Source: a virus (lineage: Duplodnaviria > Heunggongvirae > Uroviricota > Caudoviricetes). From it: a DNA stretch of 64,000 nucleotides. The position numbers were made by a program, and so were the translations under genes. Position 1 is the first letter of the stretch. Each line of letters begins with the position of its first letter. Location: IMG/VR virus record IMGVR_UViG_3300008120_000059, positions 1 through 64,000 of that record. One strand, given 5' to 3'. Shown here one piece after another: positions 30,588 through 63,978 of this stretch. The notes under the pieces were generated by a model. The model had not been told where the DNA came from. It made no database searches and saw only the letters and a list, made by a program, of their open reading frames with translations.

Positions 30588-30615
30588 AAAAACCCCTCTT
30601 TCGAGGGGTTCTTTT
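30588..30615. terminator. bidirectional rho-independent terminator (CCCCTC-tttcga-GAGGGG)
   Basis: GC stem with A-run 5' and T-run 3'. Confidence 0.6.
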
Positions 30616-31466
30616 TATTTAATACCTATCATCGTATTATTTTTGTCACCTAACATGGTTTCGGGTAACTTCCCATTCCATTTATTAATCCATTCAAGTT
30701 GTAGGAGTAAAGGTGTAATTGTTTGTTGTTTCATCCGATTGGCTTCGGATTCCGCTTTAGCCGCGGTCAACATTGCTTGAGCATTACCATTGGCGGTTGC
30801 AATTTTAATCTTGGCTTGAGCTTCCGCAGTTTTTACCTCATTTTCCGCCCTTAACGCTGCTTGGACCGCATTGTTCTTGGCTTCAATGGACTTCTTAAAT
30901 GTCTCAGGGTAAATCAAATTTGAGGTGAATTGGTTTATCACAAACCCTTCTTTTAAAAGTTGACTTTCCAATAGTTTACGAACCTCAACTTCAAACACCG
31001 CCCTATTCGAGATTAGTTCATCAGCAGTGTACTTATTTGTTGCTAAACGAAACGCGTCATATACTGCGGTCTTTAAAAATCCCTCCTCAATTTCAGGTAA
31101 TGACCTACGATACTTTGAAAATATTGTGGGTACTTTTTCTCTTTGAACCGAATAGTTCATAATTGGGGATACTTGAAACTCAGAACCGTCTTTTGAGTTT
31201 ACAACAAATGAATTATCAGATTCCTCAGTTTTCTTATACTCTTTGTGTTGAATATAGGTTGGGAATTCATAAATCTTTGTTGTGAAGGGGTTGTAGAATA
31301 CCATACCTGTACATTCGGTGACATCATCAACACCCTTTCCATCACCATATAGATTTACTTTTACACCGACGTGACCGGCGTCAATTCTCTCACAAGAGAA
31401 AAACAATAAGGTTAGGATAATGAATCCTAAAATTCCGAAAATTAATCGTTTCAAAAATGGTTCCAT
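30615..31466 (-). CDS. SPFH/band-7 (prohibitin/HflC-like) domain protein, membrane anchored
   Basis: N-terminal TM; GHVGVKVN...; Ala/Glu/Lys-rich coiled region typical of SPFH proteins. Confidence 0.65.
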   Translation of the reverse strand: MEPFLKRLIFGILGFIILTLLFFSCERIDAGHVGVKVNLYGDGKGVDDVTECTGMVFYNPFTTKIYEFPTYIQHKEYKKTEESDNSFVVNSKDGSEFQVSPIMNYSVQREKVPTIFSKYRRSLPEIEEGFLKTAVYDAFRLATNKYTADELISNRAVFEVEVRKLLESQLLKEGFVINQFTSNLIYPETFKKSIEAKNNAVQAALRAENEVKTAEAQAKIKIATANGNAQAMLTAAKAESEANRMKQQTITPLLLQLEWINKWNGKLPETMLGDKNNTMIGIK

Positions 31467-46924: not shown

Positions 46925-47353
46925 TTAAGGGTTGACATCGTTTTGTTCAGAATCTCTTATGTCAATTAATTTTTGAATTCTACTCCTACCTTTTTCACCA
47001 ATTGGTACCGGATTACCTTCTTCATCAATCCTAACAAACCTTATGTTTGTTTTCAAGATGACAATTTGGTTACCTGTGTAAACATTATGTGCTCTTGCTT
47101 CCATATACAAGGTAACTGAAGTATTCCCTAATTTACTTGGTGACCCGTAAATTTTAATCAACTGACCCTCTTTGGCTGGTTTTTCAAAAAAACATTTATC
47201 AATTGATACGGTAACTAATCTTGGTGAATCACACAATTGCATGGAGTATCCCGCAGCCGCCGCGTCAATCCACGCTAAAAGTTTTCCACCGAATAAATTT
47301 CCGTGGAATCCTAAATCCGACTTTTTTATGGGGTGTGAATTCAAAAATTCCAT
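46925..47353 (-). CDS. hotdog-fold acyl-CoA thioesterase (YciA-like)
   Basis: GNLFGGKLLAWIDAAAAGYSM block. Confidence 0.6.
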   Translation of the reverse strand: MEFLNSHPIKKSDLGFHGNLFGGKLLAWIDAAAAGYSMQLCDSPRLVTVSIDKCFFEKPAKEGQLIKIYGSPSKLGNTSVTLYMEARAHNVYTGNQIVILKTNIRFVRIDEEGNPVPIGEKGRSRIQKLIDIRDSEQNDVNP

Positions 47354-47701: not shown

Positions 47702-48826
47702 TTATTCTTCTTCATCTTTTCGATAACTTTCCAAGAGTTCCTCCCCTGAAAGTGTACCGTATTTATTTACAATTTTTTCGGTGTCTATTTCAACATTCAT
47801 CATGTGATGAACATTATTTAATTCTTCGGCTAATGATAAACTATCACTAATCACTTTAACGATTTTATATGGGTCCGCGTGTGATGCTGGTCTCCTGTCT
47901 TCAAGATAACCCTTCCATGTCTCACCAACGGATTTTGGTACACGGATAGATGCACCTCTGTCTGAGACACCCCAACTAAATTTATCAATAGATTGTGTCT
48001 CAAAATGACCTGTTAATCTCAAATGGTTATCAGAACCATAAGAGTCAATATGTTCTTGTGTTCTTGATTCAAAAGACCTAAAAATTGCATTGAAGTATTG
48101 TTCACCACCCTCTTCTCTCATTTTTTGATTTGAGAAATTTGTATGTAAACCTGAACCGTTCCATTCTCCGTGGGTCATCGGTTTGGGATGTAACTCAATA
48201 GAACGACCATATTTCTCAGCAATTTTATGTAAAAAATATCTACTCATCCATAAATCATCAGAAGCGGCAATTTTACCTGTTGCAAAAATTTGGTATTCCC
48301 ATTGACCTAATGCAACCTCTGAATTGGTTCCCTCCACATTGATGTCATATTTTAAACACATGTTCAAATGTTCATCAGAAATATTTCGACCAACAATATG
48401 TCCACCTACACCACAATAATAAATTCCTTGACCGTCAATGATACCATTTCTTTCAAATCCAAGAATTGGATTATTATGTGAAGAACGAATAAAATATTCC
48501 TGTTCAAATCCAACCCAAAAATTTACATCTTCCTCACCTACTTTTGCTCTATGATTTGATGGATGAATTTCATTATTACCATCTAAAACCTCACATAATA
48601 CATATACTGTATCAAGTGAACTATTTGTATGATATAATTTTACTGGCTTAAGATAACAATCTGAAAAGTTACCTTCCGCTTGTTTAGTTGAGCTTCCGTC
48701 AAACCCCCAATTGGGGATGTGTTTCAATTCAAATGGTGCCGGTAGGTCCACAATTTTTATTTTACTTCTGAGATTTGGCTCAGGGGAATACCCATCAAGC
48801 CATACGTATTCTACTTTTGTTTTCAT
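47702..48826 (-). CDS. glutamine synthetase type II (eukaryote-like GSII)
   Basis: EYVWLDG, NWGFDGSST, GFEQEY, YYCGVG, TNSEVALGQWEYQI, WNGSGLHTNFS, GASIRVP blocks align along the full 374 aa. Confidence 0.8.
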   Translation of the reverse strand: MKTKVEYVWLDGYSPEPNLRSKIKIVDLPAPFELKHIPNWGFDGSSTKQAEGNFSDCYLKPVKLYHTNSSLDTVYVLCEVLDGNNEIHPSNHRAKVGEEDVNFWVGFEQEYFIRSSHNNPILGFERNGIIDGQGIYYCGVGGHIVGRNISDEHLNMCLKYDINVEGTNSEVALGQWEYQIFATGKIAASDDLWMSRYFLHKIAEKYGRSIELHPKPMTHGEWNGSGLHTNFSNQKMREEGGEQYFNAIFRSFESRTQEHIDSYGSDNHLRLTGHFETQSIDKFSWGVSDRGASIRVPKSVGETWKGYLEDRRPASHADPYKIVKVISDSLSLAEELNNVHHMMNVEIDTEKIVNKYGTLSGEELLESYRKDEEE

Positions 48827-49412: not shown

Positions 49413-49808
49413 ATGATAAAGTCAAATATTTATAAAAATATGTCAGTGATTATTAATAATACAAAGTTCCCTGCGGAATACCTATCCGAACCTGAAGAAA
49501 TTAGTCAAGGTATGATGGGTAGAGATAATTTAAATGGTTGTATGGTTTTTAATATGGGTGGTGTTGGTCACCATTCTTTTTGGATGAAAAACTGTTTAAT
49601 ACCTTTGGATATTGTTTTTGTATTGAAAAATAGAATCAGTAAAATACATAGAAATTGTGAACCCGCTGGTCAAAATGAATTGAACCCAAAAAGATACACC
49701 GGCATAGGTGACCATGTTATTGAGTTTCCCGCCGGTGTTACTGATAAATTTAAAGAAGGTGACCGAGTTAATATGTATTTGGGAACACCTATGAATCCTG
49801 TCCGTTAA
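49413..49808 (+). CDS. DUF192-like protein (131 aa)
   Basis: IPLDIVFV ... block resembles DUF192/COG1430. Confidence 0.45.
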   Translation: MIKSNIYKNMSVIINNTKFPAEYLSEPEEISQGMMGRDNLNGCMVFNMGGVGHHSFWMKNCLIPLDIVFVLKNRISKIHRNCEPAGQNELNPKRYTGIGDHVIEFPAGVTDKFKEGDRVNMYLGTPMNPVR

Positions 49809-50665: not shown

Positions 50666-50746
50666 ATTGTTTTCTATTTATTATTATTACAAAAGATAAC
50701 GAATAAAAAACAATAAACCAAAATATTTATAAAAAAACTTAAAATC

Positions 50747-50932
50747 ATGGGATGCGGATGTAAAAAAAGAAACCAACCTGTTAGTAATCAAACGGTAAAC
50801 ATTCAACTAACCGAAGGTGGTTCAACACCTCCACAGGAGATTACAATTATGGAACAACAACTTGACCAAATCATAAAAAAGGTTGAGGAGATTAACAATC
50901 AAACTAACGAAGAAAACACAGAAGGACAATAA
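50747..50932 (+). CDS. hypothetical protein (61 aa)
   Basis: ORF; first plus-strand gene after divergent region. Confidence 0.35.
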   Translation: MGCGCKKRNQPVSNQTVNIQLTEGGSTPPQEITIMEQQLDQIIKKVEEINNQTNEENTEGQ

Positions 50933-51008
50933 ATTGTATCGGACAGTCTAATAAATTGTCCGATATTTTTTGTCTTTTATAATATATATAAATTTATATA
51001 CTTATATT

Positions 51009-51209
51009 ATGCCTAAACAACAAACAAAACTAACCAGCGTTAACATCATAGATGATGTTTATAAAAGATTTAAGATAAAAAGTGTAGATGGTTCAATCAA
51101 TCTACAAAAATTAGTAAACCGAGCTCTTGACCTATATAACACTAGAGAAGATTTTAGAAAACAAATTGATAATCACAACGGTCTTGCACCAAACGGTTCC
51201 AAATTTTAA
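51009..51209 (+). CDS. hypothetical protein (66 aa; start moved to ATG 51009)
   Basis: Internal ATG gives MPKQQTKLTS... Confidence 0.4.
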   Translation: MPKQQTKLTSVNIIDDVYKRFKIKSVDGSINLQKLVNRALDLYNTREDFRKQIDNHNGLAPNGSKF

Positions 51210-51258
51210 GTTGTGAATTTTATTTCTTATATTATCATCAATATTTTAAAACAAAAAA

Positions 51259-52716
51259 ATGATTACAATAGGTTACAGTACAAGAGAGTCCAACCCAAAA
51301 TTTCAAGAATATTTAAAAAAAACTTGTGGACACCCCAAAGTTCAAGTTATTGAAAAAGTAAACAATGGTGAAAAAAGTCTTTCACAAACTTACAATGAAA
51401 TTATTCAAGAGTCGATTCATGATATTGTCGTACTTTGTCATGATGACATTTACTTTAATACGACTTCGTGGGGTAGAAAATTAGTCAAACATTTTGAAGA
51501 ATCTGACTACGGGATTCTCGGTGTTGCCGGTACAACCAATATTCATGAGAGTGGTAGGTGGTGGACAGATAATACCAAAATGGTTGGTATTGTTAATCAT
51601 GAAAATGAGGGTAAAAAATGGGAATCGAGATATGCAAATGGAATCCCAAATTCAATTCACGAAGTTTGTTTAGTGGATGGTTTATTCATTGGAATCCACA
51701 AAAACAGAATAAAACACACTTTTGATGAGTCAGTACCGGGTTTTCATTTTTATGATATGGTATTCTGTACTAGCAATCACTTAAGTGAGGTAAACATCGG
51801 TGTTATATACAACATAAGAATCACTCACAAATCAATCGGAATGACCAATGATTCTTGGGAAAAGAATAGGGAATTTTACATTGAAAAATTTAAAGAGAAC
51901 CTACCAATTAATATAACACCAAAAATTGATTATGACATAACCAAACCAAAACAGTTTAAAGATAAATTTAATTTAATAGTTCAAACATCAAACGATAATG
52001 AAAATTTAATTCAGTTTTTTGAAAACATAAAAAAATTACCAGTGTTTGATAGTTTACAGATTTCACTCATCTCGACGGATACCAATATAGACAATATTAG
52101 AGAATTTGAATCTGAAAATATTAAAATTTACGAGGGTTTTTTTGATACATTAAATAAAAACTTATCAGTACTGAAATGGGATGAATCGTTTATGGAATCA
52201 AAAACAGATTTGTTATTTTTCAGTAATGATACTGTTACCGTATTGAACGACGTTTTCTCAAGTATGTATTCAATATTTAAGAGTGAAAAAAATACTTTTG
52301 GGTGCGTCTTTCCTACAGTATTAGAAAACGACCGAACAATTTTTTCAAATGGATTGGATATAGTTCAAAACAACGAACAGTTCAATTTAATTTTTAAAAA
52401 CAAATCATCTTTTTTCAATATTTTACACGGACACTTTCCAAACAATTTTGGTAGTATTAGTGACTTTTTTGCCACTACATCTACAAATTTAAAAATGATT
52501 GATTGGTTTGATATTAATTTAGAAACATCAATTTATAACTTAGATTTTGCGTTGAAAACTTTACTTAAAAAACGTAAAACATTCATTGACACAAACAGTG
52601 TGGTAATGATTGATATGGCATCAAAATTTGAAAAGGTTGATGTTGAATTAAAACAAGTCTTAGGTCAGTACATAAACTCACCTGAAATTAGAAAAAATAT
52701 CAAACAATTAAGATGA
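51259..52716 (+). CDS. two-domain putative glycosyltransferase (485 aa); N-terminal GT-A-like
   Basis: N-terminal Rossmann-like region with VVLCHDD (DxD-like); first gene of glycan island. Confidence 0.5.
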   Translation: MITIGYSTRESNPKFQEYLKKTCGHPKVQVIEKVNNGEKSLSQTYNEIIQESIHDIVVLCHDDIYFNTTSWGRKLVKHFEESDYGILGVAGTTNIHESGRWWTDNTKMVGIVNHENEGKKWESRYANGIPNSIHEVCLVDGLFIGIHKNRIKHTFDESVPGFHFYDMVFCTSNHLSEVNIGVIYNIRITHKSIGMTNDSWEKNREFYIEKFKENLPINITPKIDYDITKPKQFKDKFNLIVQTSNDNENLIQFFENIKKLPVFDSLQISLISTDTNIDNIREFESENIKIYEGFFDTLNKNLSVLKWDESFMESKTDLLFFSNDTVTVLNDVFSSMYSIFKSEKNTFGCVFPTVLENDRTIFSNGLDIVQNNEQFNLIFKNKSSFFNILHGHFPNNFGSISDFFATTSTNLKMIDWFDINLETSIYNLDFALKTLLKKRKTFIDTNSVVMIDMASKFEKVDVELKQVLGQYINSPEIRKNIKQLR

Positions 52717-53492
52717 TAAAAATTGTATCGGGATTTACAGAAAAAGGTGGTTCTACCACTTTTTTTATAAACTTAACAAATTTCTTAAATGAAAATGGTA
52801 TTGATTGCACATTTTACGGTAATCAGAATTACCATTTAGACAAATGTAAATCAGGGAACATTGAAAAAGATTTAAAGTATGAATCTGATGATATTGTAAT
52901 TACCCATTTTTTACAACTACAGGAAAGACCACCTGTTAAAAAAGTTATTTTGTCTTGTCATGAAAAATGGTGGTTCCCTGTTGGTAAAATTAAACAGTAT
53001 TGGGACCTGTGCGTGTTTTTACATGAAGAGCATCGAAAATATCACTCGGATTACAGGGGTGATTATGTAATAATACCAAACATCAAAGAAAATTTAATTA
53101 TTTCAAATAAAGAGCTGGTAAGAAATATTGCAGGAATTATTGGTACAATTGAAGACAGAAAACAGACCCATGTGTCAATACAAAGAGCATTAAAAGACAG
53201 GTGTGAAAAAATCTATTTGTTCGGTCACATCGGTGACCAAAACTATTTTGACAAATTGGTAAAACCTTTAATGAATCCAAGAGTAATTCATTACGGTCAC
53301 ACCACCAATAAACAAGAAATGTACGATATGATTGGTAAGGTATATCACTCATCAAAGGGTGAGGTTGCTTGTTTGGTTAAAGATGAATGTTATTTAACCG
53401 GTACAGAGTTTTATGGTAATGAAGAGACTATGAATGAAGTTTCTAAATTAAGTAACGAAGAGATATTAACACTTTGGAAAAACATATTTTAA
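52713..53492 (+). CDS. compact GT-B-like putative glycosyltransferase (259 aa)
   Basis: GGSTTFFINLTNFLNENG N-terminal and ...YHSSKGE... C-terminal blocks; weak. Confidence 0.4.
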   Translation: MIKIVSGFTEKGGSTTFFINLTNFLNENGIDCTFYGNQNYHLDKCKSGNIEKDLKYESDDIVITHFLQLQERPPVKKVILSCHEKWWFPVGKIKQYWDLCVFLHEEHRKYHSDYRGDYVIIPNIKENLIISNKELVRNIAGIIGTIEDRKQTHVSIQRALKDRCEKIYLFGHIGDQNYFDKLVKPLMNPRVIHYGHTTNKQEMYDMIGKVYHSSKGEVACLVKDECYLTGTEFYGNEETMNEVSKLSNEEILTLWKNIF

Positions 53493-53493
53493 A

Positions 53494-54216
53494 ATGAAGA
53501 TACACGCACATATACTGTCATGGAATGAAGAAAAAATATTACCATTCACATTGGATTACTATAGTACAATCTGTGAAAAAATATTCATATACGATAATAT
53601 GTCAACGGACTCCTCTGATGAGATTTATAAGAGGTACCCAAAAGTTGAGGTTATTAAATGGGATAGTGGTAATGAAATAAATGAAATTAATTACGTAAAC
53701 ATTAAATCCGAAGAGTATAAAAAAAGAAGTAGAGGTCAGGGTGTTGATTGGGTTATAGTTTGTGACTGTGATGAGTTTATATACCATGAAAATCTTATGG
53801 ATAAACTTCAAGAGTACAAAGAAATGGGTATAACCGTCCCAAGAATAGACGGTCACGACATGGTTAGTACTGAATTTCCAATATACGACGGTGAATTCAT
53901 TACAACAAAAATTAAAACAGGTTCACAAACGTATGAACCAATGTGTAAAAATATAATTTTTCATCCTGATTTAGATATAAAATACGGCATTGGTGGTCAC
54001 AGTTTTAATTCTGTTGATGGTAAATTTTCGGATGAGCGGGAAATAAAACTTCTTCACTATAAATTCTTGGGTAAAGACTACGTGAAGAACATTTACATTT
54101 CAAGAGCAAAGAGATTGTCATCGTTCAATAAACAACATAAATTCGGTGAACATTATTTTAATTTACCATTCAATTACATGGACAGCATGTTAAAAGAAAA
54201 TTATCAAGTTATATGA
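53494..54216 (+). CDS. GT-A-fold glycosyltransferase (Glyco_tranf_2_4-like)
   Basis: ILSWNEEKILPFTLDYY ... IYDNMSTDSSDEI ... CDCDEF. Confidence 0.5.
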   Translation: MKIHAHILSWNEEKILPFTLDYYSTICEKIFIYDNMSTDSSDEIYKRYPKVEVIKWDSGNEINEINYVNIKSEEYKKRSRGQGVDWVIVCDCDEFIYHENLMDKLQEYKEMGITVPRIDGHDMVSTEFPIYDGEFITTKIKTGSQTYEPMCKNIIFHPDLDIKYGIGGHSFNSVDGKFSDEREIKLLHYKFLGKDYVKNIYISRAKRLSSFNKQHKFGEHYFNLPFNYMDSMLKENYQVI

Positions 54217-55034
54217 GGAAAATACTTATATCGGATTTTACCATTAAAGAAGTACCTCACGGTGGTTCTGAATGGGTGAATCAAGTTTTAATTGATAGAT
54301 TTAATCTTGAGTTTGAATATTCAAACCAAGTCAAGTCATTTGATTACAACGCCCTGTATATTATATCAAATATTTCTTTGATGAACCCAAACTTGGTTAA
54401 TCAAATACAAAATTTGAACTACGTCATTATTGAAAACGATTATAAAATATGTGCAAGTAGACACCCATGGAGATATACCGACAACATAATTCCGATTGAG
54501 GAAAGAACCAACTATTCTCTTTACCGGAATGCAAAAGCGGTATTTGTTCAAACAACCGACCACATGAACGTTTATCTTAAAAACGATGTTGTTGCTAATT
54601 TTATAAATCTGAATAGTTCGATATGGTCAAATGAGGACTTAGAATTATTGAGGAATTTAAATAAATCCAACAATGTTAAAAACGACAAATATTCTGTTTA
54701 CTATACAAATAATTGGATAAAGAACACCCAAGGTAGTCTGAAGTATTGTTCTGAAAATAAATTACCGGTCCATATTCTTAAAGAATCTAAAGACAGAGTT
54801 GAATTTTTAAGTAATATGGCCAAATGTAAAGGTATTGTGTTTTTCCCGATAGCAAGAGAAACTTTTTGTAGACTGGTTGTTGAGGCAAAATGTTTAGGTT
54901 TGGAAGTAATAACGACACAAAATTATGGTGCAAGTTTAGAAGAATGGTTTAATAGGTTATCAGGTGATGAATTAATTGATTTCTTAGAAACTAACACTTT
55001 AAAAAATTTAGAAATCATTTCAACTTATATATGA
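54213..55034 (+). CDS. GT-B-like (GT4-type) putative glycosyltransferase (273 aa)
   Basis: C-terminal ETFCRLVVEAKCLGLEVITT resembles the GT4 E-x7-E region. Confidence 0.4.
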   Translation: MRKILISDFTIKEVPHGGSEWVNQVLIDRFNLEFEYSNQVKSFDYNALYIISNISLMNPNLVNQIQNLNYVIIENDYKICASRHPWRYTDNIIPIEERTNYSLYRNAKAVFVQTTDHMNVYLKNDVVANFINLNSSIWSNEDLELLRNLNKSNNVKNDKYSVYYTNNWIKNTQGSLKYCSENKLPVHILKESKDRVEFLSNMAKCKGIVFFPIARETFCRLVVEAKCLGLEVITTQNYGASLEEWFNRLSGDELIDFLETNTLKNLEIISTYI

Positions 55035-56023
55035 TATTATTTTGTTACGGCACAAGACCTGAGTATATTAAAATAAAAAAATTAATAGAAATGTGTGGGG
55101 AAAGTATTCCCCATAAAATTTTATATGTTACCCAACACAAAGATATTGTATTGGGTGATTTTGATTATAAATTATCCATTGATGATACGTGTGAAAATAG
55201 ATTGGATAGTATTATGTCATCCGTATTTTTAAATTTTAAAAAAGAATTTTTGGAAGGGGTTACACATATACTTATCCAAGGGGACACCGCAACCGCTCTT
55301 TCATTATCCCTAATAGGATTACACCATAAAAAAGAAGTGATTCATTTAGAAGCGGGATTACGGACATATGACTACAATCACCCTTACCCCGAAGAAATGT
55401 ATCGGCAGTTAATTAGTAGAATTTCAAACTATAATCTTTGCCCAACAGAAAGTAACAAGATGAACTTAGAAAATGAAAAAGTTCAGGGTAAAAATTTTGT
55501 AGTTGGCAATACCGTATTAGATAATCTTAATAAAGAAAATATTACATACGAAAATAAAGTCTTAATCACTTTACATAGAAGAGAGAATCATGAGATGATG
55601 TCGGAGTGGTTTGATGTTATCAATCGATTAGCAAAGAATAATCCTGAATTAAAATTCATTCTTCCAATACACCCAAACCCAAACGTCATAAAACACAAAC
55701 ATATATTGACACATGTTGATGTTATTGAACCATTAACCCATGATAAATTTATTGAGGAATTCAAATCCTGTAAATTACTAATTTCAGATAGTGGGGGTGT
55801 TCAAGAAGAGGCGTCGTTCCTAAATAAGAAAGTTATTGTATGTAGAGAAAAAACTGAGAGACCTGAGTCCTTGGGTAAAACGTCTTTTATATGTAAAAAA
55901 CCCATTGACTTAGAAGGTATTTTTTACGATATTATTAACGATTTCCAAACAGAATATGATTGTCCTTTTGGTGATGGTAATTCTTGTGAAAGAATCATTG
56001 AAATATTTAGAAAAATTGTATGA
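55031..56023 (+). CDS. UDP-N-acetylglucosamine 2-epimerase (non-hydrolysing, WecB/MnaA-like)
   Basis: GTRPEYIK, HLEAGLRTYD, ITLHRREN, HPNPNV, SDSGGVQEEA, PFGDGNSCERI blocks align with WecB along the full length. Confidence 0.75.
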   Translation: MILFCYGTRPEYIKIKKLIEMCGESIPHKILYVTQHKDIVLGDFDYKLSIDDTCENRLDSIMSSVFLNFKKEFLEGVTHILIQGDTATALSLSLIGLHHKKEVIHLEAGLRTYDYNHPYPEEMYRQLISRISNYNLCPTESNKMNLENEKVQGKNFVVGNTVLDNLNKENITYENKVLITLHRRENHEMMSEWFDVINRLAKNNPELKFILPIHPNPNVIKHKHILTHVDVIEPLTHDKFIEEFKSCKLLISDSGGVQEEASFLNKKVIVCREKTERPESLGKTSFICKKPIDLEGIFYDIINDFQTEYDCPFGDGNSCERIIEIFRKIV

Positions 56024-56748
56024 GTATAACGGTAATATTAAATGGGTATAAAAGACCACATGTTCTCCAAAAACAATTGGAATCAATTAGAAATCAAAGT
56101 GTCCAACCCGAATCAATTTTATTTTGGCAAAATTCTGGTTCTCAATTTGATGAGGGACTAACCAAAGATTTAATTCACGCATCTTGTAATAGTAATTTAG
56201 GTGTGTGGGCAAGATTTGCATTTGCTTTAAATGCCAACACAGAATATATTTGTGTTTTTGATGATGACACAATACCGGGTAAACTATGGTTAGAAAACTG
56301 TCTAAACACCATGAAAATTCAAGAAGGTTTATTAGGAACTATCGGTGTAAAATTTCACACAAAAAACTCTTATTGGCCAGCAACAAGAGTCGGTTGGGAC
56401 CAACCTAACGAAGAAATTGAAAAGGTCGACATTGTTGGTCACTCGTGGTTCTTTAAAAGAGAATGGTTATCGATATTTTGGAGAGAATTACCTGAAATCA
56501 ATCAGAGTAAATTAGTTGGTGAGGATATGCACTTTTCATATACATTACAGAAATACGCAAATATCGGAACTTACGTTCCTCCCCATCCTAAAGAAAATAG
56601 AGAAATGTGGGGTAGTATACCAGAATATGCATGGGAACATGGAACTGATTCCAACGCAATTTCCGTAAATCATTCAAATATGAATTTAATGGGTGAAGTT
56701 TACCGTGGGTATGTAAATAAAGGATTTAAGACAATATTAAATGATTGA
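56020..56748 (+). CDS. GT-A-fold glycosyltransferase (242 aa)
   Basis: ITVILNGYKRPHVLQKQLESIRNQ ... VFDDDTIPG (DxD). Confidence 0.5.
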   Translation: MSITVILNGYKRPHVLQKQLESIRNQSVQPESILFWQNSGSQFDEGLTKDLIHASCNSNLGVWARFAFALNANTEYICVFDDDTIPGKLWLENCLNTMKIQEGLLGTIGVKFHTKNSYWPATRVGWDQPNEEIEKVDIVGHSWFFKREWLSIFWRELPEINQSKLVGEDMHFSYTLQKYANIGTYVPPHPKENREMWGSIPEYAWEHGTDSNAISVNHSNMNLMGEVYRGYVNKGFKTILND

Positions 56749-57460
56749 AAAGTATATTGAAGATTTTAATTCGTTTTGGGAAAAGATAGATAGTCGAACT
56801 AACTTTTCTTTTGTTAGATATGCCGATGGTGAAGTGATGTTAATGAATAATTCACCGATAGAAAAGAATACACAAGCGTATCAAAACGATAAATGGTTTT
56901 CGAGTGGGGGACAAACCAAATTAGGTGTGGATTTAAATGAATGTATAGGGTTGAACGACCCAAATTTTTATTTTGCAATATCCTCCAAAACTGATAGTAT
57001 TAGAGACTATAATTTTTTATATGATAGAATACAAAATAAATCAAACATTACATTTGCTAACCTATGGATTAACGCAAATTACAAAGAAAATATATCAAGA
57101 ATAAGAAATATAAATCGAGATGTTGTTTTAATTTGTAATGAAAATTGTGATTTAAAAAACATACCATTTAGTGTATCAGAATTTGTACCGTTCCCTAATG
57201 ATTGTGTAAACTATTGGGAAGAACATAGAGATTCGTTTTTAGAAAAAATATACAATGTTTCTTCAAAATATAAAGATACTTTATTTATCGTATGTTGTGG
57301 ACCAACATCTGCTGTTATCATAAAACATATGTTTACAAATAATAGTAATAACACTTATATTGATTTTGGTTCCGCATTAGATGTATTCATACATAATAAA
57401 ATAACTAGACCATACATGTATGAAGGGTCACAATATCATAATCACATATCAAAATTTTAA
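56741..57460 (+). CDS. hypothetical protein in glycan island (239 aa)
   Basis: ORF with overlapping start. Confidence 0.45.
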   Translation: MIEKYIEDFNSFWEKIDSRTNFSFVRYADGEVMLMNNSPIEKNTQAYQNDKWFSSGGQTKLGVDLNECIGLNDPNFYFAISSKTDSIRDYNFLYDRIQNKSNITFANLWINANYKENISRIRNINRDVVLICNENCDLKNIPFSVSEFVPFPNDCVNYWEEHRDSFLEKIYNVSSKYKDTLFIVCCGPTSAVIIKHMFTNNSNNTYIDFGSALDVFIHNKITRPYMYEGSQYHNHISKF

Positions 57461-57466
57461 TTCAGT

Positions 57467-58057
57467 ATGAATAATGATTTTTGTGTCATAGTACAAGGAC
57501 CTTCAGACTACGTTAAAGAATTAAAAAACGCTTGGACTGGTTATGATTTGATTTGGTCAACATGGCAAGGTGAAGAATCAAAATACGATACTAATGATGT
57601 TGTCTTATTCAACAGTATTCCACACGATAGGGGTGTACAAAATATAGCACTACAAAAAATATCAACTTTGAATGGAATAATGAAAGCCAAAGAAATAGGT
57701 TACAACAGAGTCCTTAAATGGAGAAGTGATTTACTACCATCTAATGCAAATAGATTAGTTTCCACATTTAAAAAAGAGTGTGTAAATTTTTTGACTTGGC
57801 ATAATGAAGGAAAATATTTTGTTGATTATTTTGTGGAGGGTGAAATAGATACGGTGTTTGATATTTGGAATGTATCTACCATACACGATGAGTATTCGGA
57901 AAAAATAATCACGGAAAATATAATATCACTTAACTATAAAAATATAAACTTTATGGGTGGCGAATTAAGTAATGATAATGAAATTTTTTGGTTAAAACGA
58001 AATATTAATTTGTCCACATATAAAGACGCACCATGTTATAGTATGGTGGTGATTTAA
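57467..58057 (+). CDS. hypothetical protein in glycan island (196 aa)
   Basis: ORF. Confidence 0.45.
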   Translation: MNNDFCVIVQGPSDYVKELKNAWTGYDLIWSTWQGEESKYDTNDVVLFNSIPHDRGVQNIALQKISTLNGIMKAKEIGYNRVLKWRSDLLPSNANRLVSTFKKECVNFLTWHNEGKYFVDYFVEGEIDTVFDIWNVSTIHDEYSEKIITENIISLNYKNINFMGGELSNDNEIFWLKRNINLSTYKDAPCYSMVVI

Positions 58058-58068
58058 AAATTATAAAA

Positions 58069-58803
58069 ATGATAGATAATTCAAAATTTATTGACGACGC
58101 ATTTACTCAAGATGAATTAAATAGGGGTGCCTTTACCGATTTGAATGGTAGATGTCCATTATGGACAACAAAAATGATTAATGTTATAAAAGATAAAATT
58201 GACTTTAATGATGTCAACACAATATTAGATATTGGGTCAAGAGATGGTTGCCAAAGTTTAGAGTTAAATAGATGGTTTCCACATGCTAAAATATATGCGT
58301 TTGAACCAGTAAAAGAAAACTACGAATTTACAGTTAAGAACGTTGAGAAAATTAATAACATAAAAGTTTACCAATACGCAATAAACAATTACAACGGTAA
58401 AACTAAATTTTACGAAGTTTATAATGGAAATGTGGGTGCCAGTTCTTTATTACAGACAACAAACCACTGGCGTTCATCTCAGTGGGCCCAAAAGGAAACT
58501 GAGGTTGACTGTATTGTTCTTAGTGATTGGTTAAAAGAAAATGATATTAAAAGTGTTGATTTGATTTGGATGGATGTTCAAGGTGCAGAAAATATCGTAT
58601 TAGACTCTCTAAAAGAATATTTAAATGATGTAAAAATAATAACCACCGAAGTAGGGTTACAGGAATTATATCGTGGTTCTACAAGTAAATCTGAACTAGA
58701 TGAAAAACTAAATAGGTTTATACCAATAGACGAGTCGCCAGAATCTTCAAACACAGAAATGGATGTGGTTTATATCAACAAAAATTTAACACCTTATGGA
58801 TAA
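58069..58803 (+). CDS. FkbM-family SAM-dependent methyltransferase
   Basis: ILDIGSRDGCQSLEL ... AFEP ... IWMDVQGAE blocks. Confidence 0.6.
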   Translation: MIDNSKFIDDAFTQDELNRGAFTDLNGRCPLWTTKMINVIKDKIDFNDVNTILDIGSRDGCQSLELNRWFPHAKIYAFEPVKENYEFTVKNVEKINNIKVYQYAINNYNGKTKFYEVYNGNVGASSLLQTTNHWRSSQWAQKETEVDCIVLSDWLKENDIKSVDLIWMDVQGAENIVLDSLKEYLNDVKIITTEVGLQELYRGSTSKSELDEKLNRFIPIDESPESSNTEMDVVYINKNLTPYG

Positions 58804-59497
58804 TAAAATTTGTTACGTTACTTATACAAATTCAAAATGTTCAGATATTTTGGATATGTTCTTGTTAGAACAAAAAAAGTACACAAACTTACCGATGTAT
58901 TTTATTACAGATGTAATGATACCCGAGCAAATTTGTTTTTTATATGAAAATCAAGAACCTTATTATGAATCATGGTTAAAGTGTTTATCTTCAATACCAT
59001 ATGACTATTTTATATACTTACAAGAAGACTTTATTCTTTATAACAATGTCAGTCATGATAAAATTTTTAATTACCTCGATTTTTTACATGATAACCAAGA
59101 ATATTCGTTCATTAGATTGTTAAAATCGGGGTCTGTTAAAGATAAAAAAATTTATGAGACCTTATATGAAATAGAATCCGACAATAAAGATATATTTTCT
59201 ATGCAACCAACTATTTGGAAAAAAGATGATTACATTAAAATCATGAAAGGTACCAAAAATAATATGTGGTTAGAGAATGAAACATATAGAAATTTTATGA
59301 TAGAAAACAACATCAAAGGTTTATATCATTACGATGGTGAAAACAAAAGGGGGTTGAATCATTTTGATAGTTCTGTTTATCCATATATAGCAACGGCTTT
59401 AGTTAGAGGTAAATGGAATTTATCTGAATACCCTAATGAACTCTCTCCATTAATAAATGAATATGAAATAAACGTAAATGTTCGGGGGATACATTAA
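58796..59497 (+). CDS. hypothetical protein in glycan island (233 aa)
   Basis: ORF. Confidence 0.45.
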   Translation: MDNKICYVTYTNSKCSDILDMFLLEQKKYTNLPMYFITDVMIPEQICFLYENQEPYYESWLKCLSSIPYDYFIYLQEDFILYNNVSHDKIFNYLDFLHDNQEYSFIRLLKSGSVKDKKIYETLYEIESDNKDIFSMQPTIWKKDDYIKIMKGTKNNMWLENETYRNFMIENNIKGLYHYDGENKRGLNHFDSSVYPYIATALVRGKWNLSEYPNELSPLINEYEINVNVRGIH

Positions 59498-59499
59498 TA

Positions 59500-60174
59500 A
59501 TGAAAATTGTTCTATCTTTTTACACCAACAATAAATTTAGTAACACCGTTCAAAAATTAATCGGATATTATAATTCACGTGGTTTCAATGATATCCGAGG
59601 ATTTAAATCTGAAGATGTTAAGAAAGGTATTTTTTATGAAAACCATAAAGAAATATTAGATTGTGAAACGGGTGATGGATTTTGGTTGTGGAAACCAAAA
59701 ATTATTTTAGATATTTTGAATGAATTAGAAGATGGGGATGCATTAATTTATACCGATGCCGGTGATTTAGTTGATGTTGATTATAATACGATTGCAAATT
59801 ATTTGAAAGATAATGATTATTATTTTACAAATTGGAATGGAAATCGTTGGCCTCAAAAAATATGTACAAAAAGAGACTGTTTTATCTTGATGGATTGTGA
59901 TGAAGAAAAGTTTCATGAAACACCACAGATGGAAGCAGGATTTATCATCATTAAAAAAACCAAACAAATGATGGAATTTGTTCACGATTATTTTAAGTAT
60001 TGTAGTATTAAACAGATAGTTGACAATGAACCAAATCAAATTGGTGAGAATTTTCCAAATTGGCAATTCCATAGAAATGACCAAAGTATATTAACTAACT
60101 TGGTTGTGAAACATAATTTAAAATTTGATTATTGTCTCGATTATAGAATAAAATACAACGTATATATACCATGA
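59500..60174 (+). CDS. hypothetical protein in glycan island (224 aa)
   Basis: ORF. Confidence 0.45.
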   Translation: MKIVLSFYTNNKFSNTVQKLIGYYNSRGFNDIRGFKSEDVKKGIFYENHKEILDCETGDGFWLWKPKIILDILNELEDGDALIYTDAGDLVDVDYNTIANYLKDNDYYFTNWNGNRWPQKICTKRDCFILMDCDEEKFHETPQMEAGFIIIKKTKQMMEFVHDYFKYCSIKQIVDNEPNQIGENFPNWQFHRNDQSILTNLVVKHNLKFDYCLDYRIKYNVYIP

Positions 60175-60932
60175 AATTTATTGCATTAAATTATAATTAT
60201 GACTTAAATAAAATGTCCCAAATCGGTCGGAAATGGGCGTTTGATGTCTACAAAAATAAAGAGTTTATATCTGATTATTCATCAGCATCTTATGCTTCAT
60301 TTATTGATAAGAATAGAAAAAGTATTTTACATCTTTATACTGATGATGTTGAGGGTATGAAAGAAAAAATGAACAAGTATAACATTGACCAAGACAGAAT
60401 TATTTATATTGATTACACGGAACAACTTACCAAATACAATGAAAGTCTTAATTATAGTTTTACAGTTTTAAATGATTTTATTAATTATGCAAAATCAGAA
60501 ACTGAGTACACTGTAAAAATCGATAATGATTTATTTTTTCATTCGGAATTACCACAAATTGATGATAATTCTATTATGGTTTGGAAGTATGAAAGAATCG
60601 TTAGGAATGGTGACCCGAGATGGGGTGAAATAAAAATATGTAAACAGGTTACAAATGATTTAGATTTTAAAATTTATAATTTAGGTATTTTTGGGTTGCC
60701 CGCGGATTACAATATTCACCAAGCAAAAAAAATTATGGAAGATATGATATCGGTAGACATTTCAGATGTGACTGATACAGACTCGAAGATTTATCATTGT
60801 TGTGAGCAAACGGCAAATAATTGGATTTTTCACAAAGAAAATTATAACGTGATTGAAACGTATAATTATGTTGACCACCTGTTTGATAGAAAAGGTGATT
60901 GTATAGAATTATCAAAATATCTTTTAAAATGA
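60171..60932 (+). CDS. hypothetical protein in glycan island (253 aa)
   Basis: ORF. Confidence 0.45.
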   Translation: MKFIALNYNYDLNKMSQIGRKWAFDVYKNKEFISDYSSASYASFIDKNRKSILHLYTDDVEGMKEKMNKYNIDQDRIIYIDYTEQLTKYNESLNYSFTVLNDFINYAKSETEYTVKIDNDLFFHSELPQIDDNSIMVWKYERIVRNGDPRWGEIKICKQVTNDLDFKIYNLGIFGLPADYNIHQAKKIMEDMISVDISDVTDTDSKIYHCCEQTANNWIFHKENYNVIETYNYVDHLFDRKGDCIELSKYLLK

Positions 60933-61696
60933 AAACATCAGTAGTATTGACAATTCACAACAAGGAATTCTTAATGAACCAAGTGGTGAGTAACTTGGTA
61001 AATAATTTATCAGAACTGAATGACCAGATTGTAATAGTTTTTGATGGTTGTACAGATAATAGTGAAGGTATTGTTCGTGACAATTTAAAGAGAGTTAGTA
61101 ATAAAAAAATTGATTACCTGTATGCCGACAATGTTTTTGAAACCAAAGCAAATAATATTGGTCTAAAGTCTGTTATAAATGATTATGTGGTCTTAATCCA
61201 AGATGATATGGTTGTCACAGAAAAAGATTTTGATAAGAGGATGTTGGAACCGTTCATAAAATATAGTGATGTGTTCGCTGTAACATCTTTTGTTGCTCAC
61301 AATAACATCTATAATGAACAAACAAAACAAATAAATTACATCGATATTGCACATAAAGATAACTCATCAAGAGATATTTTTTATGCTAGAGAATATGGTA
61401 ACAGAGGTCCACTAATGTACAACTATAATGACGTGGTCAAATTAAATTTTTTAGACGAATATTTTTCACCCCAAAATTATGATGATATGGATATGTCCAT
61501 GAGAGCATTCAAAGAACTCGGAAAAGTGTCAGGTTTATATACGATAGATTATATTTCCGAACCTGGATGGGGGACCACTAGACAAAAAAATCAATCATTA
61601 CATAATAATTTAGTTTACGTAAACGCAGCAAAAATACTTGAAAAACACAGGGATTTATTGTATAATAAAGACAAATATAAAGAGGATAGAGAATGA
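60929..61696 (+). CDS. glycosyltransferase family 2 (start moved to ATG 60929, ATGA overlap)
   Basis: MKTSVVLTIHNKE ... VFDGCTDNS ... IQDDM. Confidence 0.6.
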   Translation: MKTSVVLTIHNKEFLMNQVVSNLVNNLSELNDQIVIVFDGCTDNSEGIVRDNLKRVSNKKIDYLYADNVFETKANNIGLKSVINDYVVLIQDDMVVTEKDFDKRMLEPFIKYSDVFAVTSFVAHNNIYNEQTKQINYIDIAHKDNSSRDIFYAREYGNRGPLMYNYNDVVKLNFLDEYFSPQNYDDMDMSMRAFKELGKVSGLYTIDYISEPGWGTTRQKNQSLHNNLVYVNAAKILEKHRDLLYNKDKYKEDRE

Positions 61697-62310
61697 ATAA
61701 TATAGAGCTAAAGACATTTATGATTAATCATAATGTTAATATCCATGGTGTGATTCACGTTGGTGCACATTTTGGTCAAGAAGATGAAGTTTATAAGGAA
61801 TTGGGTATTTCAAACAGAATATACTTTGAACCTCTATCGTCTAATTTTGAGACCTTAAAAGAAAAAATAGATGATGACGCAATTTTAGTTAAACTGGCGT
61901 TAGGTAATGAAAAGAGAAAAGTTTCTATGTTTGTAGAATCCTTTAATAAAGGTATGTCATCCTCAATATTAGAACCGAAATTACATTCTGTTCAATTTCC
62001 TCATATCGTTTTTGATTCTGTAGAAGAAGTTGAAATGGATAGATTGGATGATTTAAATTACGATTTTTCAAAATACAACATGATGAATATCGATGTTCAA
62101 GGTTTTGAATTAGAGGTTCTCAAAGGTTCCGTGAATACATTAATCAACATTGACTACGTTATTGTAGAAATAAACAGAGCCGAATTATATAAAGGTTGTC
62201 CACACTTTGATGAAATAAACAATTGGATGACACATCATGGGTTTACCTGTGTTGAACAATTTTGGTGGGGTAATAATTTTGGTGAGGGATTTTTTAAAAA
62301 AATAAAATGA
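61693..62310 (+). CDS. FkbM-family SAM-dependent methyltransferase (second copy)
   Basis: HVGAHFGQE ... YFEP ... NIDVQGFELEVLKG. Confidence 0.6.
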   Translation: MNNIELKTFMINHNVNIHGVIHVGAHFGQEDEVYKELGISNRIYFEPLSSNFETLKEKIDDDAILVKLALGNEKRKVSMFVESFNKGMSSSILEPKLHSVQFPHIVFDSVEEVEMDRLDDLNYDFSKYNMMNIDVQGFELEVLKGSVNTLINIDYVIVEINRAELYKGCPHFDEINNWMTHHGFTCVEQFWWGNNFGEGFFKKIK

Positions 62311-63368
62311 AACGAGTATTAGTATTGGGTGGTGGCGGATTTATTGGTGGTCACCTAGCAAAAAGATTAAAAAATGAAGGAAACTACGTAAGAGTAGTTG
62401 ATATAAAAAGACACGAATATTTTGATGAGAAAGACTTTTGTGACGAATTCTTAATATATGACCTTACGGACCCAAAAAACGTATCATCAGTAATGAGATT
62501 AGAAGAATTAAATGGTACGATATTACCGTTTAATTATTACAAACAACCATATTCAACTGAGGTCCCATTTGATGAGGTTTATCAATTAGCTGCCGATATG
62601 GGTGGTGCTGGTTACATCTTCACTGGTGAAAATGACGCGAATGTTATGCACAATTCTGCAATGATAAATTTAAATGTTGTAAATGAATCAGTGAAGACAA
62701 AAGTTAAGAAGATTTTTTATTCATCATCGGCATGTATGTATCCTGAACACAATCAATTAGACCCTAACAACCCAAATTGTGAAGAATCATCAGCATATCC
62801 CGCGAATCCTGATTCAGAATATGGTTGGGAAAAACTTTTTTCGGAAAGGTTGTACTTGGCTTTTCACAGAAATCACGGTTTGGATGTTCGAATTGCTAGA
62901 TTTCATAACATATTTGGTCCATATGGTACGTGGAAAGGTGGTAAAGAAAAAGCACCAGCAGCTATGTGTAGAAAAGTTGCCGAAATGTTAGACGGTGGAG
63001 AAATTGAAGTTTGGGGTGATGGTCAACAGACTCGTTCATTCTTATATGTGGATGAATGTGTTGAAGCGGTTTTAAGACTAATGAGACAAGACTCTTTTTT
63101 GGGTCCTGTAAACATTGGTTCTGAAGAGAAAGTAACAATTAATGATTTGGCTCAAATGGCTATAGATATTTCAGGTAAAGAAATTTATATCAGAAATATT
63201 GGTGGGGAAGAATTTAAACAGAAGTATGGATATAAATGTCCTGTTGGTGTGAGGGGAAGAAATTCAGACAATAAATTATACCACGAAAAAATAGGTTGGG
63301 TTGTTAGTGAACCTCTGTTCTATGGAATGGAAAAAACCTATAAATGGATTAATAGTTTAGTTAAATAA
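62307..63368 (+). CDS. GDP-mannose 3,5-epimerase (GME)-like NAD-dependent epimerase
   Basis: VLGGGGFIGGHLAKRLK (GxxGxxG); LAADMGG; FYSSSACMYPE; RFHNIFGPYGTWKGGKEKAPAAMCRK; WGDGQQTRSF; VRGRNSDN; near full-length collinearity with plant GME. Confidence 0.75.
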   Translation: MKRVLVLGGGGFIGGHLAKRLKNEGNYVRVVDIKRHEYFDEKDFCDEFLIYDLTDPKNVSSVMRLEELNGTILPFNYYKQPYSTEVPFDEVYQLAADMGGAGYIFTGENDANVMHNSAMINLNVVNESVKTKVKKIFYSSSACMYPEHNQLDPNNPNCEESSAYPANPDSEYGWEKLFSERLYLAFHRNHGLDVRIARFHNIFGPYGTWKGGKEKAPAAMCRKVAEMLDGGEIEVWGDGQQTRSFLYVDECVEAVLRLMRQDSFLGPVNIGSEEKVTINDLAQMAIDISGKEIYIRNIGGEEFKQKYGYKCPVGVRGRNSDNKLYHEKIGWVVSEPLFYGMEKTYKWINSLVK

Positions 63369-63400
63369 AAAAGGGGGTTATTGACCCCCTTCTTTTTTTT
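63368..63400. terminator. bidirectional rho-independent terminator (AAGGGGG-ttattga-CCCCCTT)
   Basis: GC stem flanked by A6 and T8 between convergent genes. Confidence 0.7.
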
Positions 63401-63671
63401 CAATGTATTTTAATATAATTGCTAACGCCTCGTCGTCCCCATTAAAATCTTTTTCGGGACAAAAAAAGGGTCCTTTACCAGTGTCGTCTTTTTTAATGTA
63501 AAAGGCGGGTAAATATTCATTACCCGTTTGTTCAATTACTTTATTCCAAATCTCTTTATTCTTACCAACTTCAACTTCTCGGTAAGGTAATGATTCTTTT
63601 TGGAGTCTCTCTTTTAATCTTTTACAACCTCCACAACCCTCAAGTGTAAATAGAAGTAATTCATTCGCCAT
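63378..63671 (-). CDS. glutaredoxin-like thioredoxin-fold protein (CGGC active site)
   Basis: LFTLEGCGGCKRLKERL N-terminal CxxC in a ~97 aa Grx-like frame. Confidence 0.55.
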   Translation of the reverse strand: MANELLLFTLEGCGGCKRLKERLQKESLPYREVEVGKNKEIWNKVIEQTGNEYLPAFYIKKDDTGKGPFFCPEKDFNGDDEALAIILKYIEKKEGGQ

Positions 63672-63672
63672 A

Positions 63673-63978
63673 TTATAAAGTGTTTAATATTTCTTTGTAA
63701 AAAGAATCGGGTCTAACACCTGATGTTCTTGATACTTCGTTATTACCATTAAATATCATTACCGTTGGTACTGAACGTACCCCATATTCTTGAGAACCTG
63801 ACATTTCAGAATCAACATTAACCTTGACGAATTTAACATCAGGGTATTCGTGTTGTAGTAAATCTAATTTTGGTAATAACATTTTACATGGTCCACACCA
63901 TTCAGCGTAAAAGTCGGCAAGAACTTTCTCACCGTTTTGTTTCATTTCATTTAGTTTTTCAACTGTTACTAATTCCAT
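63673..63978 (-). CDS. thioredoxin
   Basis: WCGPCK active site, 101 aa. Confidence 0.8.
   Translation of the reverse strand: MELVTVEKLNEMKQNGEKVLADFYAEWCGPCKMLLPKLDLLQHEYPDVKFVKVNVDSEMSGSQEYGVRSVPTVMIFNGNNEVSRTSGVRPDSFYKEILNTL

Follow-up and report, generated by a model that had tools for sequence, protein, structure and literature searches.

The DNA analysed here (the window) is a stretch of 64,000 nucleotides, positions 1 to 64,000 of the IMG/VR virus record IMGVR_UViG_3300008120_000059, and the gene in question, located on the + strand at 62307..63368, is an ATG-to-stop open reading frame (ORF) of 353 aa encoding a homologue of GDP-mannose 3,5-epimerase (GME or GM35E; EC 5.1.3.18). The position and length given to this ORF in an earlier description of the window (the original prediction) all matched, and the six motifs quoted there, GGGGFIGGH, LAADMGG, SSACMYPE, RFHNIFGPYGTWKGGKEKAPAAMCRK, WGDGQQTRSF and VRGRNSDN, were found in the translation. 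A phmmer search of all PDB chain sequences returned Arabidopsis GME (2c59) as the best match (E = 1.3e-87, query residues 4-350), followed by UDP-xylose synthase (UXS) as the runner-up family at 2e-21, and a profile built from 22 homologues scored plant GME at 1.6e-125, with the next PDB family at 5e-44. The collinearity with plant GME that had been claimed was borne out at 50% identity over 303 aligned columns, the window protein having two insertions that break the alignment. Among general family models, the protein matched, in Pfam, only the generic Epimerase family (PF01370, 1.1e-40) and, among PHROGs, PHROG 540 (1.3e-77), and none of the NCBIfam equivalogs reached its cutoff.

The residues that define GM35E, in the numbering of the Arabidopsis enzyme (AtGME, also AtGM35E), are the triad S143/Y174/K178, the acid/base pair Cys145/Lys217, Arg306, Arg243 and Asn203 (PMC8787198). 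Mapped through a HMMER alignment, in which the 2c59 chain numbering equals the UniProt numbering +2, the AtGM35E residues S143, C145, Y174, K178, N203, K217, R243 and R306 had identical equivalents in S141, C143, Y172, K176, N201, K215, R243 and R318 of the window protein. The oxidation/reduction triad [ST]...Yx3K was thus present as S141, Y172 and K176, the catalytic Cys, Lys and Tyr residues proposed for checking were intact (C143, K215, Y172 and K176), the diphosphate-binding Arg and the conserved Asn corresponded to R243 and N201, and the Cys-acidifying Arg to R318. The glycine motif GxxGxxG is formed by G8, G11 and G14 (GGGGFIGG). The signature residues did not vary in 34 homologues of 74-91% identity.

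The same positions separate GME from enzymes that resemble it. GMER is reported to differ from GM35E in having His as the base and Lys, in place of Arg306, tuning the Cys (PMC8787198). In the discriminating columns, read from a 252-sequence alignment, the Cys/Lys/Arg set was C/K/R in the window protein, C/H/K in E. coli Fcl (GMER), T/G/Y in E. coli GalE and E/gap/Y in E. coli RfbB. Identification as a GDP-L-fucose synthase (GMER/Fcl) was rejected on the replacement of H/K by K215/R318 and on the Fcl model NF047922, which scored 103.4 bits (cutoff 500); UDP-glucose 4-epimerase (GalE) was rejected on the presence of the Cys/Lys pair and on model TIGR01179, with 57 bits (cutoff 262.3). E. coli Fcl/GMER nevertheless resembles the window protein in being a GDP-sugar 3,5-epimerising extended short-chain dehydrogenase/reductase (SDR) with a catalytic Cys, and differs in its His base and Lys tuner versus Lys215 and Arg318 and in its position as an outgroup in the tree described below.

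The AlphaFold2 model of the epimerase (pLDDT 79.8, pTM 0.82) retrieved plant GME structures first in Foldseek (E ~3e-31, TM 0.75), with UXS, GalE and GMER next at 1e-21 to 1e-18. AtGM35E (PDB 2C59/2C54/2C5A/2C5E) and the Myrciaria dubia GME (8SG0) share the extended-SDR fold with the window protein at ~50% identity. At the same time, plant GME carries N- and C-terminal extensions and, in AtGME, the motif GxxGxxA, whereas the window protein has GxxGxxG and no extensions. Two insertions further distinguish it from the plant enzymes. One, of 11 aa, occupies residues 299-309 (GEEFKQKYGYK) and was carried by 79 of 80 viral (IMG/VR) and 8 of 77 bacterial matches; it is absent from plants, cyanophages and most bacteria. 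The second, of ~28 aa at about residues 60-87, is more variable; the model shows it, with good confidence, as a beta-hairpin.

A tree built by neighbour joining from 163 taxa and 320 columns, with 100 bootstraps (the Methylacidiphilum enzyme MfGM35E, discussed below, was not included), separated all GME-like sequences, including two plant enzymes, from E. coli Fcl, RfbB and GalE at 94% bootstrap. The proposed comparison with the UXS, GalE and dTDP-glucose dehydratase families placed the window protein with GME in phmmer, in the profile search and, against E. coli Fcl/RfbB/GalE, in the tree. Since sequence, fold, phylogeny and the eight signature residues agree, the window ORF is confirmed, as far as sequence-derived evidence goes, as a real member of the GDP-mannose 3,5-epimerase family.

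The description of the protein as "plant-type" did not survive comparison with its relatives. It shares 48.9-50% of its residues with AtGME, which does not exceed the 50-54% of typical bacterial GMEs in the same alignment. Viral contigs with a relative at 67-95% identity number at least 596 in IMG/VR, and among the 80 best of them 21 are longer than 100 kb. Among bacteria, at least 597 species genomes in GTDB, from many phyla, have a related gene, the closest cellular homologues among the matches listed being from Bacteroidota: a Chitinophagaceae metagenome-assembled genome (77%), Flavobacterium endophyticum DSM 29537 (74%, on a 2.1-Mb contig) and Saprospiraceae (71%). In a library of 1.84 billion proteins, 800 clusters at 50% identity matched with E <= 1e-30. 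With these numbers, the statement that GME is rare outside photosynthetic eukaryotes has to be withdrawn. Deposited phage genomes with a match numbered 216, and the best of them were T4-like cyanomyoviruses at 56-58% identity. Public collections contain an identical protein on 34 contigs (up to 288 kb in length), under the JGI name "GDP-D-mannose 3',5'-epimerase"; the epimerase family is widespread and this protein is already annotated under the right name.

In the tree, the window protein was sister to an IMG/VR sequence of 95% identity (L002; 100% bootstrap), within a clade with 86% bootstrap that contains 29 viral sequences from IMG/VR and five from bacteria (Flavobacterium, Saprospiraceae, Sediminibacterium and Cephaloticoccus). 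Plant GMEs formed a separate clade (100% bootstrap with P0192). An origin of the gene from a photosynthetic eukaryote, as a plant or algal GME among other eukaryote-derived genes and perhaps connected by the adjacent thioredoxin and glutaredoxin with ascorbate or redox metabolism, is close to negligible in our estimation. It draws on the top rank of plant GMEs among solved structures, although these are, to our knowledge, the only GMEs with solved structures, and on a type II glutamine synthetase elsewhere in the window; it is opposed by the separate plant clade and by identities of 58-95% to bacterial and viral homologues versus 49-50% to plants, and also by the genomic context described in the following paragraphs. 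As judged from these affinities, the epimerase gene lineage is that of cellular surface-polysaccharide loci of Bacteroidota, not that of plants, and tree and insertion together assign the window epimerase to an uncharacterised, insertion-bearing viral/Bacteroidota subclade of GME. The window epimerase is not evidence of eukaryotic gene flow.

Several domain arrangements were observed in GME-family proteins. In metagenomes, some members of the family (P0159 and P0169) contain inteins inside the epimerase, with Hint, Intein_splicing and LAGLIDADG domains, and GME is fused to UDP-glucose/GDP-mannose dehydrogenase domains in P0140 and P0187 and to a NodZ-like fucosyltransferase domain in P0136.

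The epimerase gene is the 15th and last member of a ~12-kb block of 15 genes on the + strand (51259-63368). The block opens with a GT2_5-like glycosyltransferase of 485 aa (51259-52716; PF13712, 2.9e-24), followed by an ORF of 259 aa with no assigned function (52713-53492), a GT2_4 glycosyltransferase of 240 aa (53494-54216; PF13704, 3.2e-15), a weakly GT1-like ORF of 273 aa (54213-55034; PF00534, 0.0025) and a homologue of UDP-N-acetylglucosamine 2-epimerase, the second nucleotide-sugar enzyme of the module (55031-56023; PF02350, 4e-60; PHROG 29538, 9e-52). Next come a GT2 glycosyltransferase (56020-56748; PF00535, 1e-06), a weakly GT-D-like protein (56741-57460; PF22882 at 1.2e-4, under its cutoff), another ORF without assigned function (196 aa, 57467-58057), an FkbM-family methyltransferase (58069-58803; PF05050, 1e-19) and three ORFs of 233, 224 and 253 aa that matched no Pfam or PHROG family (58796-60932). 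A GT2-family glycosyltransferase (60899-61696; PF00535, 1.9e-12), for which the JGI gene call starts later and gives 240 aa, and a second FkbM-family methyltransferase (61693-62310; PF05050, 1.3e-16), whose stop codon overlaps the epimerase start (ATGA), complete the series, all on the + strand. At least four glycosyltransferases of the operon have a clear family match. The GC content at third codon positions (GC3) of the epimerase gene is 0.246, within the operon range of 0.20-0.30; this operon-like composition marks the epimerase gene as an old, integrated member of the operon.

Upstream of the block, a divergent intergenic region of 593 nt (50666..51258), between a DNA methylase gene and the first glycosyltransferase gene, is the expected site of the operon promoter. 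A terminator-like hairpin lies within this region at 50936-50966, as do sigma-70-like matches at 50956-50983 and 51211-51238; promoter-like matches were not enriched over shuffled sequences, and the promoter assignment is accordingly weak.

No transmembrane helix was predicted in any of the 15 operon proteins, and no initiating phosphoglycosyl transferase, flippase or polymerase was found in the 15-gene module. Searches of the 64-kb window by tblastn with E. coli ManC, ManB, Gmm, WcaJ and WzxC as queries gave no homologues of ManB, ManC, Gmm, WcaJ or Wzx, and the Pfam annotation of the operon contained no UDP-glucose/GDP-mannose dehydrogenase gene.

The position of the epimerase gene in an operon of glycosyltransferases and methyltransferases does not favour the vitamin C role that had been attached to it. 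Among the ~55 of 85 window ORFs compared with Pfam or PHROGs, none had the function of a later enzyme of the Smirnoff-Wheeler ascorbate pathway (GDP-L-galactose phosphorylase, L-Gal-1-P phosphatase, L-Gal dehydrogenase or GLDH), although no search aimed at these enzymes was made. The adjacency of the epimerase gene to thioredoxin and glutaredoxin genes is real, but the significance given to it is not: the glutaredoxin gene (63378-63671) and the thioredoxin gene (63673-63978) both lie on the - strand, convergent with the epimerase gene. Between them and the operon, an intrinsic-terminator-like hairpin on the + strand (63371..63391; AAGGGGGTTATTGACCCCCTT then a T run, with a 9-bp stem containing 5 GC pairs) begins 3 nt past the epimerase stop codon and overlaps the 3' end of the glutaredoxin gene; by its sequence, this putative terminator marks the end of the + strand unit. 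Furthermore, thioredoxin and glutaredoxin genes adjoin GME in only one of 80 related viral loci, that of the 95% relative. In comparison, 25 of 80 IMG/VR loci have, at no more than 6 kb from GME, a homologue of the FkbM gene that precedes the epimerase gene in the window (61693..62310). Because the redox genes are convergent, lie past the hairpin and recur in a single locus, their neighbourhood appears incidental; a functional link to the epimerase was rejected on these grounds, and both they and the glycan operon context count against the eukaryote-derived origin considered above.

The rest of the window also speaks for a prokaryotic virus. It has 32.6% GC and a dense arrangement of genes, neighbours overlapping at their start and stop codons. 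No tRNA was found in the window, and no Rfam element, the wcaG type included, reached the gathering threshold. Terminator-like sites numbered 16 in the 50-64 kb region against 4.7 +/- 2.1 in shuffled sequences. The SF1 helicase at 21804-23717 is closest to proteins of Bacteroides phage DAC and Chryseobacterium phages, and several window ORFs matched PHROG families. The same genome has been assembled many times, the contigs ranging from 50 kb to over 200 kb in length. Comparison with isolated phages by megablast gave no match for 1-25 kb of the window and, for 40-64 kb, a single match of 150 bp, in the thymidylate synthase gene (45041-45193), 92% identical to Flavobacterium phage vB_FspM_immuto; with just this patch in common, no close cultured relative is apparent. 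On the combined evidence of gene packing, terminators, helicase affinity, PHROG matches and the immuto patch, the window is part of the genome of a large uncultured tailed phage, the host being probably a member of the Bacteroidota and, within these, probably Flavobacteriia-like. A eukaryotic or giant-virus origin was rejected in view of the phage-like helicase, the PHROG matches, the terminator enrichment, the start/stop overlaps and the fact that the relatives are IMG/VR phage contigs.

The glutamine synthetase near 47.7 kb (47702-48826, - strand, 373 aa) is indeed of type II (GSII), as had been predicted; the "eukaryotic-flavoured" character assigned to the element on its account was not upheld, the genome being of the tailed-phage type with Bacteroidota-phage affinities. 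Its best PDB match, at 1e-81, was 4bax, which we take to be a bacterial (Streptomyces) GSII, so no eukaryotic source is needed for this gene, and the support that it lent to a eukaryotic origin of the epimerase is offset. After 4bax came yeast, plant and animal GSII, with type I enzymes at ~1e-7. Moraphages are a group of large phages from fresh water with Flavobacteriia as their predicted hosts, and glutamine synthetase is reported in 9 of 25 of them (PMC12619734). The GSII gene, an Hc1 gene and many glycosyltransferases match traits reported for this group, to which the phage of the window may thus belong. The Hc1 gene (chlamydial histone H1-like, PF07432; 60 aa) lies at 15966-16148 of L001, ~5 kb past the epimerase gene and beyond the window end, near genes for a Dam-type methylase, an AAA protein and an Amidase_2 protein.

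The neighbourhoods of GME in other genomes were compared by clustering the ORFs within 6 kb of the gene in 80 viral, 80 bacterial and 2 cyanophage loci. PhoH was present near GME in 54 viral loci and GT2 in 50, both with no occurrence in bacterial or cyanophage loci. FkbM methyltransferases were found in 35 viral, 9 bacterial and no cyanophage loci, a second NDP-sugar epimerase/dehydratase in 26, 16 and 2, GT11 in 31, 5 and 2, GT10 in 23, 0 and 2, and the UDP-glucose/GDP-mannose dehydrogenase family in 20, 7 and 2, respectively. Three other families showed the opposite distribution, with no viral or cyanophage occurrence: GT4 (29 bacterial loci), WecG/TagA (21) and the initiating transferase Bac_transf (18). 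GT10 and GT11 are fucosyltransferase families. Fucosyltransferases have been reported to take GDP-L-galactose as a donor (PMC8787198), and this, with the GT10/GT11 neighbours and the NodZ-like fusion, supports the idea of L-hexosyl transferases as the users of GME products. The fusions to dehydrogenase domains and the dehydrogenase neighbours hint that in some lineages the chemistry involves GDP-uronic acid or L-hexuronate.

The GM35E of Methylacidiphilum fumariolicum (MfGM35E), the only characterised bacterial enzyme, is 50.5% identical to AtGME and has a proposed role in lipopolysaccharide (LPS) or glycan synthesis, not in vitamin C formation (PMC6678494). The residues that the paper gives as catalytic in this prokaryote-type enzyme (Ser, Tyr, Lys, Cys, Lys and Arg) are also those of the window protein, which is unlike MfGM35E in being phage-encoded, mesophilic, AT-rich in its gene and a member of the insertion-bearing subclade. 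From the plant enzymes the window protein is set apart by the two insertions, by its separate clade and by a phage glycan operon in place of the ascorbate/cell-wall pathway.

The GMEs of cyanomyoviruses (S-SSM7 gp253, S-SCSM2R gp236, S-B05, S-CAM9 and others), 56-58% identical to the window protein, likewise lie within clusters of glycosyltransferase and sugar-nucleotide genes. They differ in lacking the 11-aa insertion, and their clusters contain GT10/GT11 and UDP-glucose dehydrogenase, none of which was detected in the operon of the window. In Synechococcus phage S-SCSM2R, an annotated wcaG non-coding RNA motif (L082 7214-7311) lies upstream of a 2OG-Fe(II) oxygenase and GME pair; no such motif was found in the window. 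The S-SCSM1 gene ORF123 has already been named GME (PMC9602691). In many other cyanophage deposits (for instance GU071098 S-SSM7 gp253, MK799832 S-B05, KU686204-6 S-CAM9), the GME-family gene is labelled "UDP-glucose 4-epimerase" or "nucleotide-sugar epimerase", and a review of GM35E warns of mislabelling as "UDP-glucose 4-epimerase" (PMC8787198).

The chromosomal orthologue of Flavobacterium endophyticum DSM 29537 (L084), at 74% identity, shares with the window protein both the 11-aa insertion and membership of the 86% clade. It is located in a complete Wzx/Wzy locus with Bac_transf, a flippase, Wzy_C, GT1 and GT2, whereas the phage operon is without membrane components.

Taken together, these data make it likely, in our judgement, that the gene encodes a bacterial/phage-type, NAD-dependent GDP-mannose 3,5-epimerase in a large Bacteroidota-phage genome, supplying an L-hexose donor for a phage-specified glycan. 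On the basis of the conserved residues and the AtGM35E mechanism, Tyr172, Lys176 and Ser141 with bound NAD+ would oxidise C4 of GDP-D-mannose, drawn presumably from the host pool; Cys143 and Lys215 would then epimerise C5 and C3, with Arg318 tuning Cys143, and re-reduction of C4 by NADH would yield GDP-L-galactose, GDP-L-gulose being the expected product of epimerisation at C5 only. One or more glycosyltransferases of the operon would use this L-hexose donor to build the glycan during infection, and the FkbM enzymes would probably O-methylate it. The substrate, the products, the use of host GDP-mannose, the glycosyltransferase that uses the donor and the acceptor are the parts of this scheme that we infer.

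Several points weigh against the scheme. The tree is distance-based and its backbone is weak, with few key nodes well supported; model confidence is low in the active-site loops 96-107 and 142-172; and the 11-aa insertion, ~8 residues upstream of Arg318, or the 28-aa insertion could alter specificity or product ratio. The 64 kb inspected belong to a genome of at least 157 kb, and genes for GDP-mannose supply or membrane functions may lie elsewhere in it. No GT10/GT11-like protein was detected in the operon with hidden Markov models built from neighbour clusters or with PHROGs on its unannotated ORFs. The characterised GM35Es are plant enzymes and the Methylacidiphilum enzyme, none of them viral (PMC6678494, PMC8787198).

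The 11-aa insertion raises the question of whether the viral/Bacteroidota subclade performs other chemistry within the same family, acting for example on GDP-mannuronic acid or GDP-glucose, or releasing mainly a singly epimerised product (GDP-L-gulose or GDP-altrose) in place of GDP-L-galactose. The subclade-specific insertion at 299-309 just upstream of Arg318 agrees with such a change, as do the dehydrogenase fusions in P0140 and P0187 and the dehydrogenase genes adjoining GME in the viral, bacterial and cyanophage loci counted above, and GM35E is known to release several products, GDP-altrose included (Gevaert 2020, as cited in PMC8787198). We nevertheless consider it unlikely: the catalytic and diphosphate-binding signature residues are all unchanged, the operon of the window has no dehydrogenase gene, and MfGM35E, equally far from AtGME (50.5%), has the canonical activity (PMC6678494).

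All proteins of the module are soluble, and it has no initiating transferase, flippase, polymerase or transmembrane protein; as to the acceptor, we therefore slightly favour a cytoplasmic one, such as virion proteins, over a surface polysaccharide that the module would make on its own. The main alternative is decoration of a host lipid-linked glycan with use of the host export machinery: undecaprenyl-linked intermediates of O-antigen or capsule would receive L-Gal/L-Gul and methyl groups from the soluble glycosyltransferases of the phage and would be exported by host Wzx/Wzy, for example as a defence against superinfection or grazing. Such remodelling of the host envelope, which we regard as a serious possibility with the odds somewhat against it, is suggested by the location of cellular orthologues in Wzx/Wzy surface-polysaccharide loci, by the reading of cyanophage epimerase and glycosyltransferase genes as LPS/cell-wall modifiers (PMC9602691) and by an ORF at 16046-16783 of the window that matches GtrB-like O-antigen conversion PHROGs. 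It fits less well with a module free of membrane proteins and of the initiating transferase, flippase and polymerase, with the occurrence of Bac_transf near GME in bacterial but not in viral loci, and with the size of the module, since at least four clear glycosyltransferases, weaker candidates and two methyltransferases are a large set for mere decoration.

A more far-reaching form of the cytoplasmic reading can be put forward tentatively, and we hold it to be rather improbable: the soluble 15-gene module would be an autonomous, host-membrane-independent system building an O-methylated oligosaccharide of L-galactose/L-gulose on virion proteins in the cytoplasm, akin to the self-glycosylation of giant-virus capsids, with the insertion-bearing GMEs as virus-adapted donor suppliers.

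Phage DNA is another conceivable acceptor, with hypermodified bases carrying an unusual sugar for which GME supplies the donor. According to a study cited as ref. 46 in PMC12619734, hypermodification of DNA by phage glycosyltransferases can involve diverse glycans. The enzymes of the module are also all soluble. However, the sole ThyA-family gene of the window encodes a canonical thymidylate synthase (44439-45764, - strand; GDTHLYSNH is kept, and the best matches are true thymidylate synthases), no hydroxymethylase was seen in the window, and the annotated families of the module are typical of polysaccharide/glycan biosynthesis loci, so that we regard DNA glycosylation as very unlikely. The thymidylate synthase is unusually long (440 aa), with insertions at about residues 152-189, 243-277 and 342-408 relative to solved enzymes.

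The abundance of the GME family in aquatic phages and Bacteroidota corrects the view of GME as mainly a plant vitamin C enzyme. The phage and Bacteroidota GMEs constitute a large untapped pool of candidate enzymes, and glycans with L-galactose/L-gulose may be a common product of phage glycan modules.

Other features of the window were noted in passing. A second glycosyltransferase locus lies on the - strand at 16046-17465, where the ORF at 16046-16783 matches GtrB-like O-antigen conversion/GT2 PHROGs at 8e-10 and the overlapping ORF at 16770-17465 is unannotated. Among other unusual cargo, the - strand has genes for an ABC_membrane_3 protein (10880-11722), a class I/II aminotransferase (23944-25053), an SPFH/Band 7 protein (30615-31466), a PcfJ-like protein of 610 aa (40252-42087) and a 4HBT thioesterase (46925-47353), and a DUF192 protein is encoded on the + strand (49413-49808). 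The coding strand is + at 0-6 kb, - at 7-50 kb and + again at 51-63 kb, and the cumulative GC skew turns at ~6 kb and ~51 kb, at these switches of coding strand.

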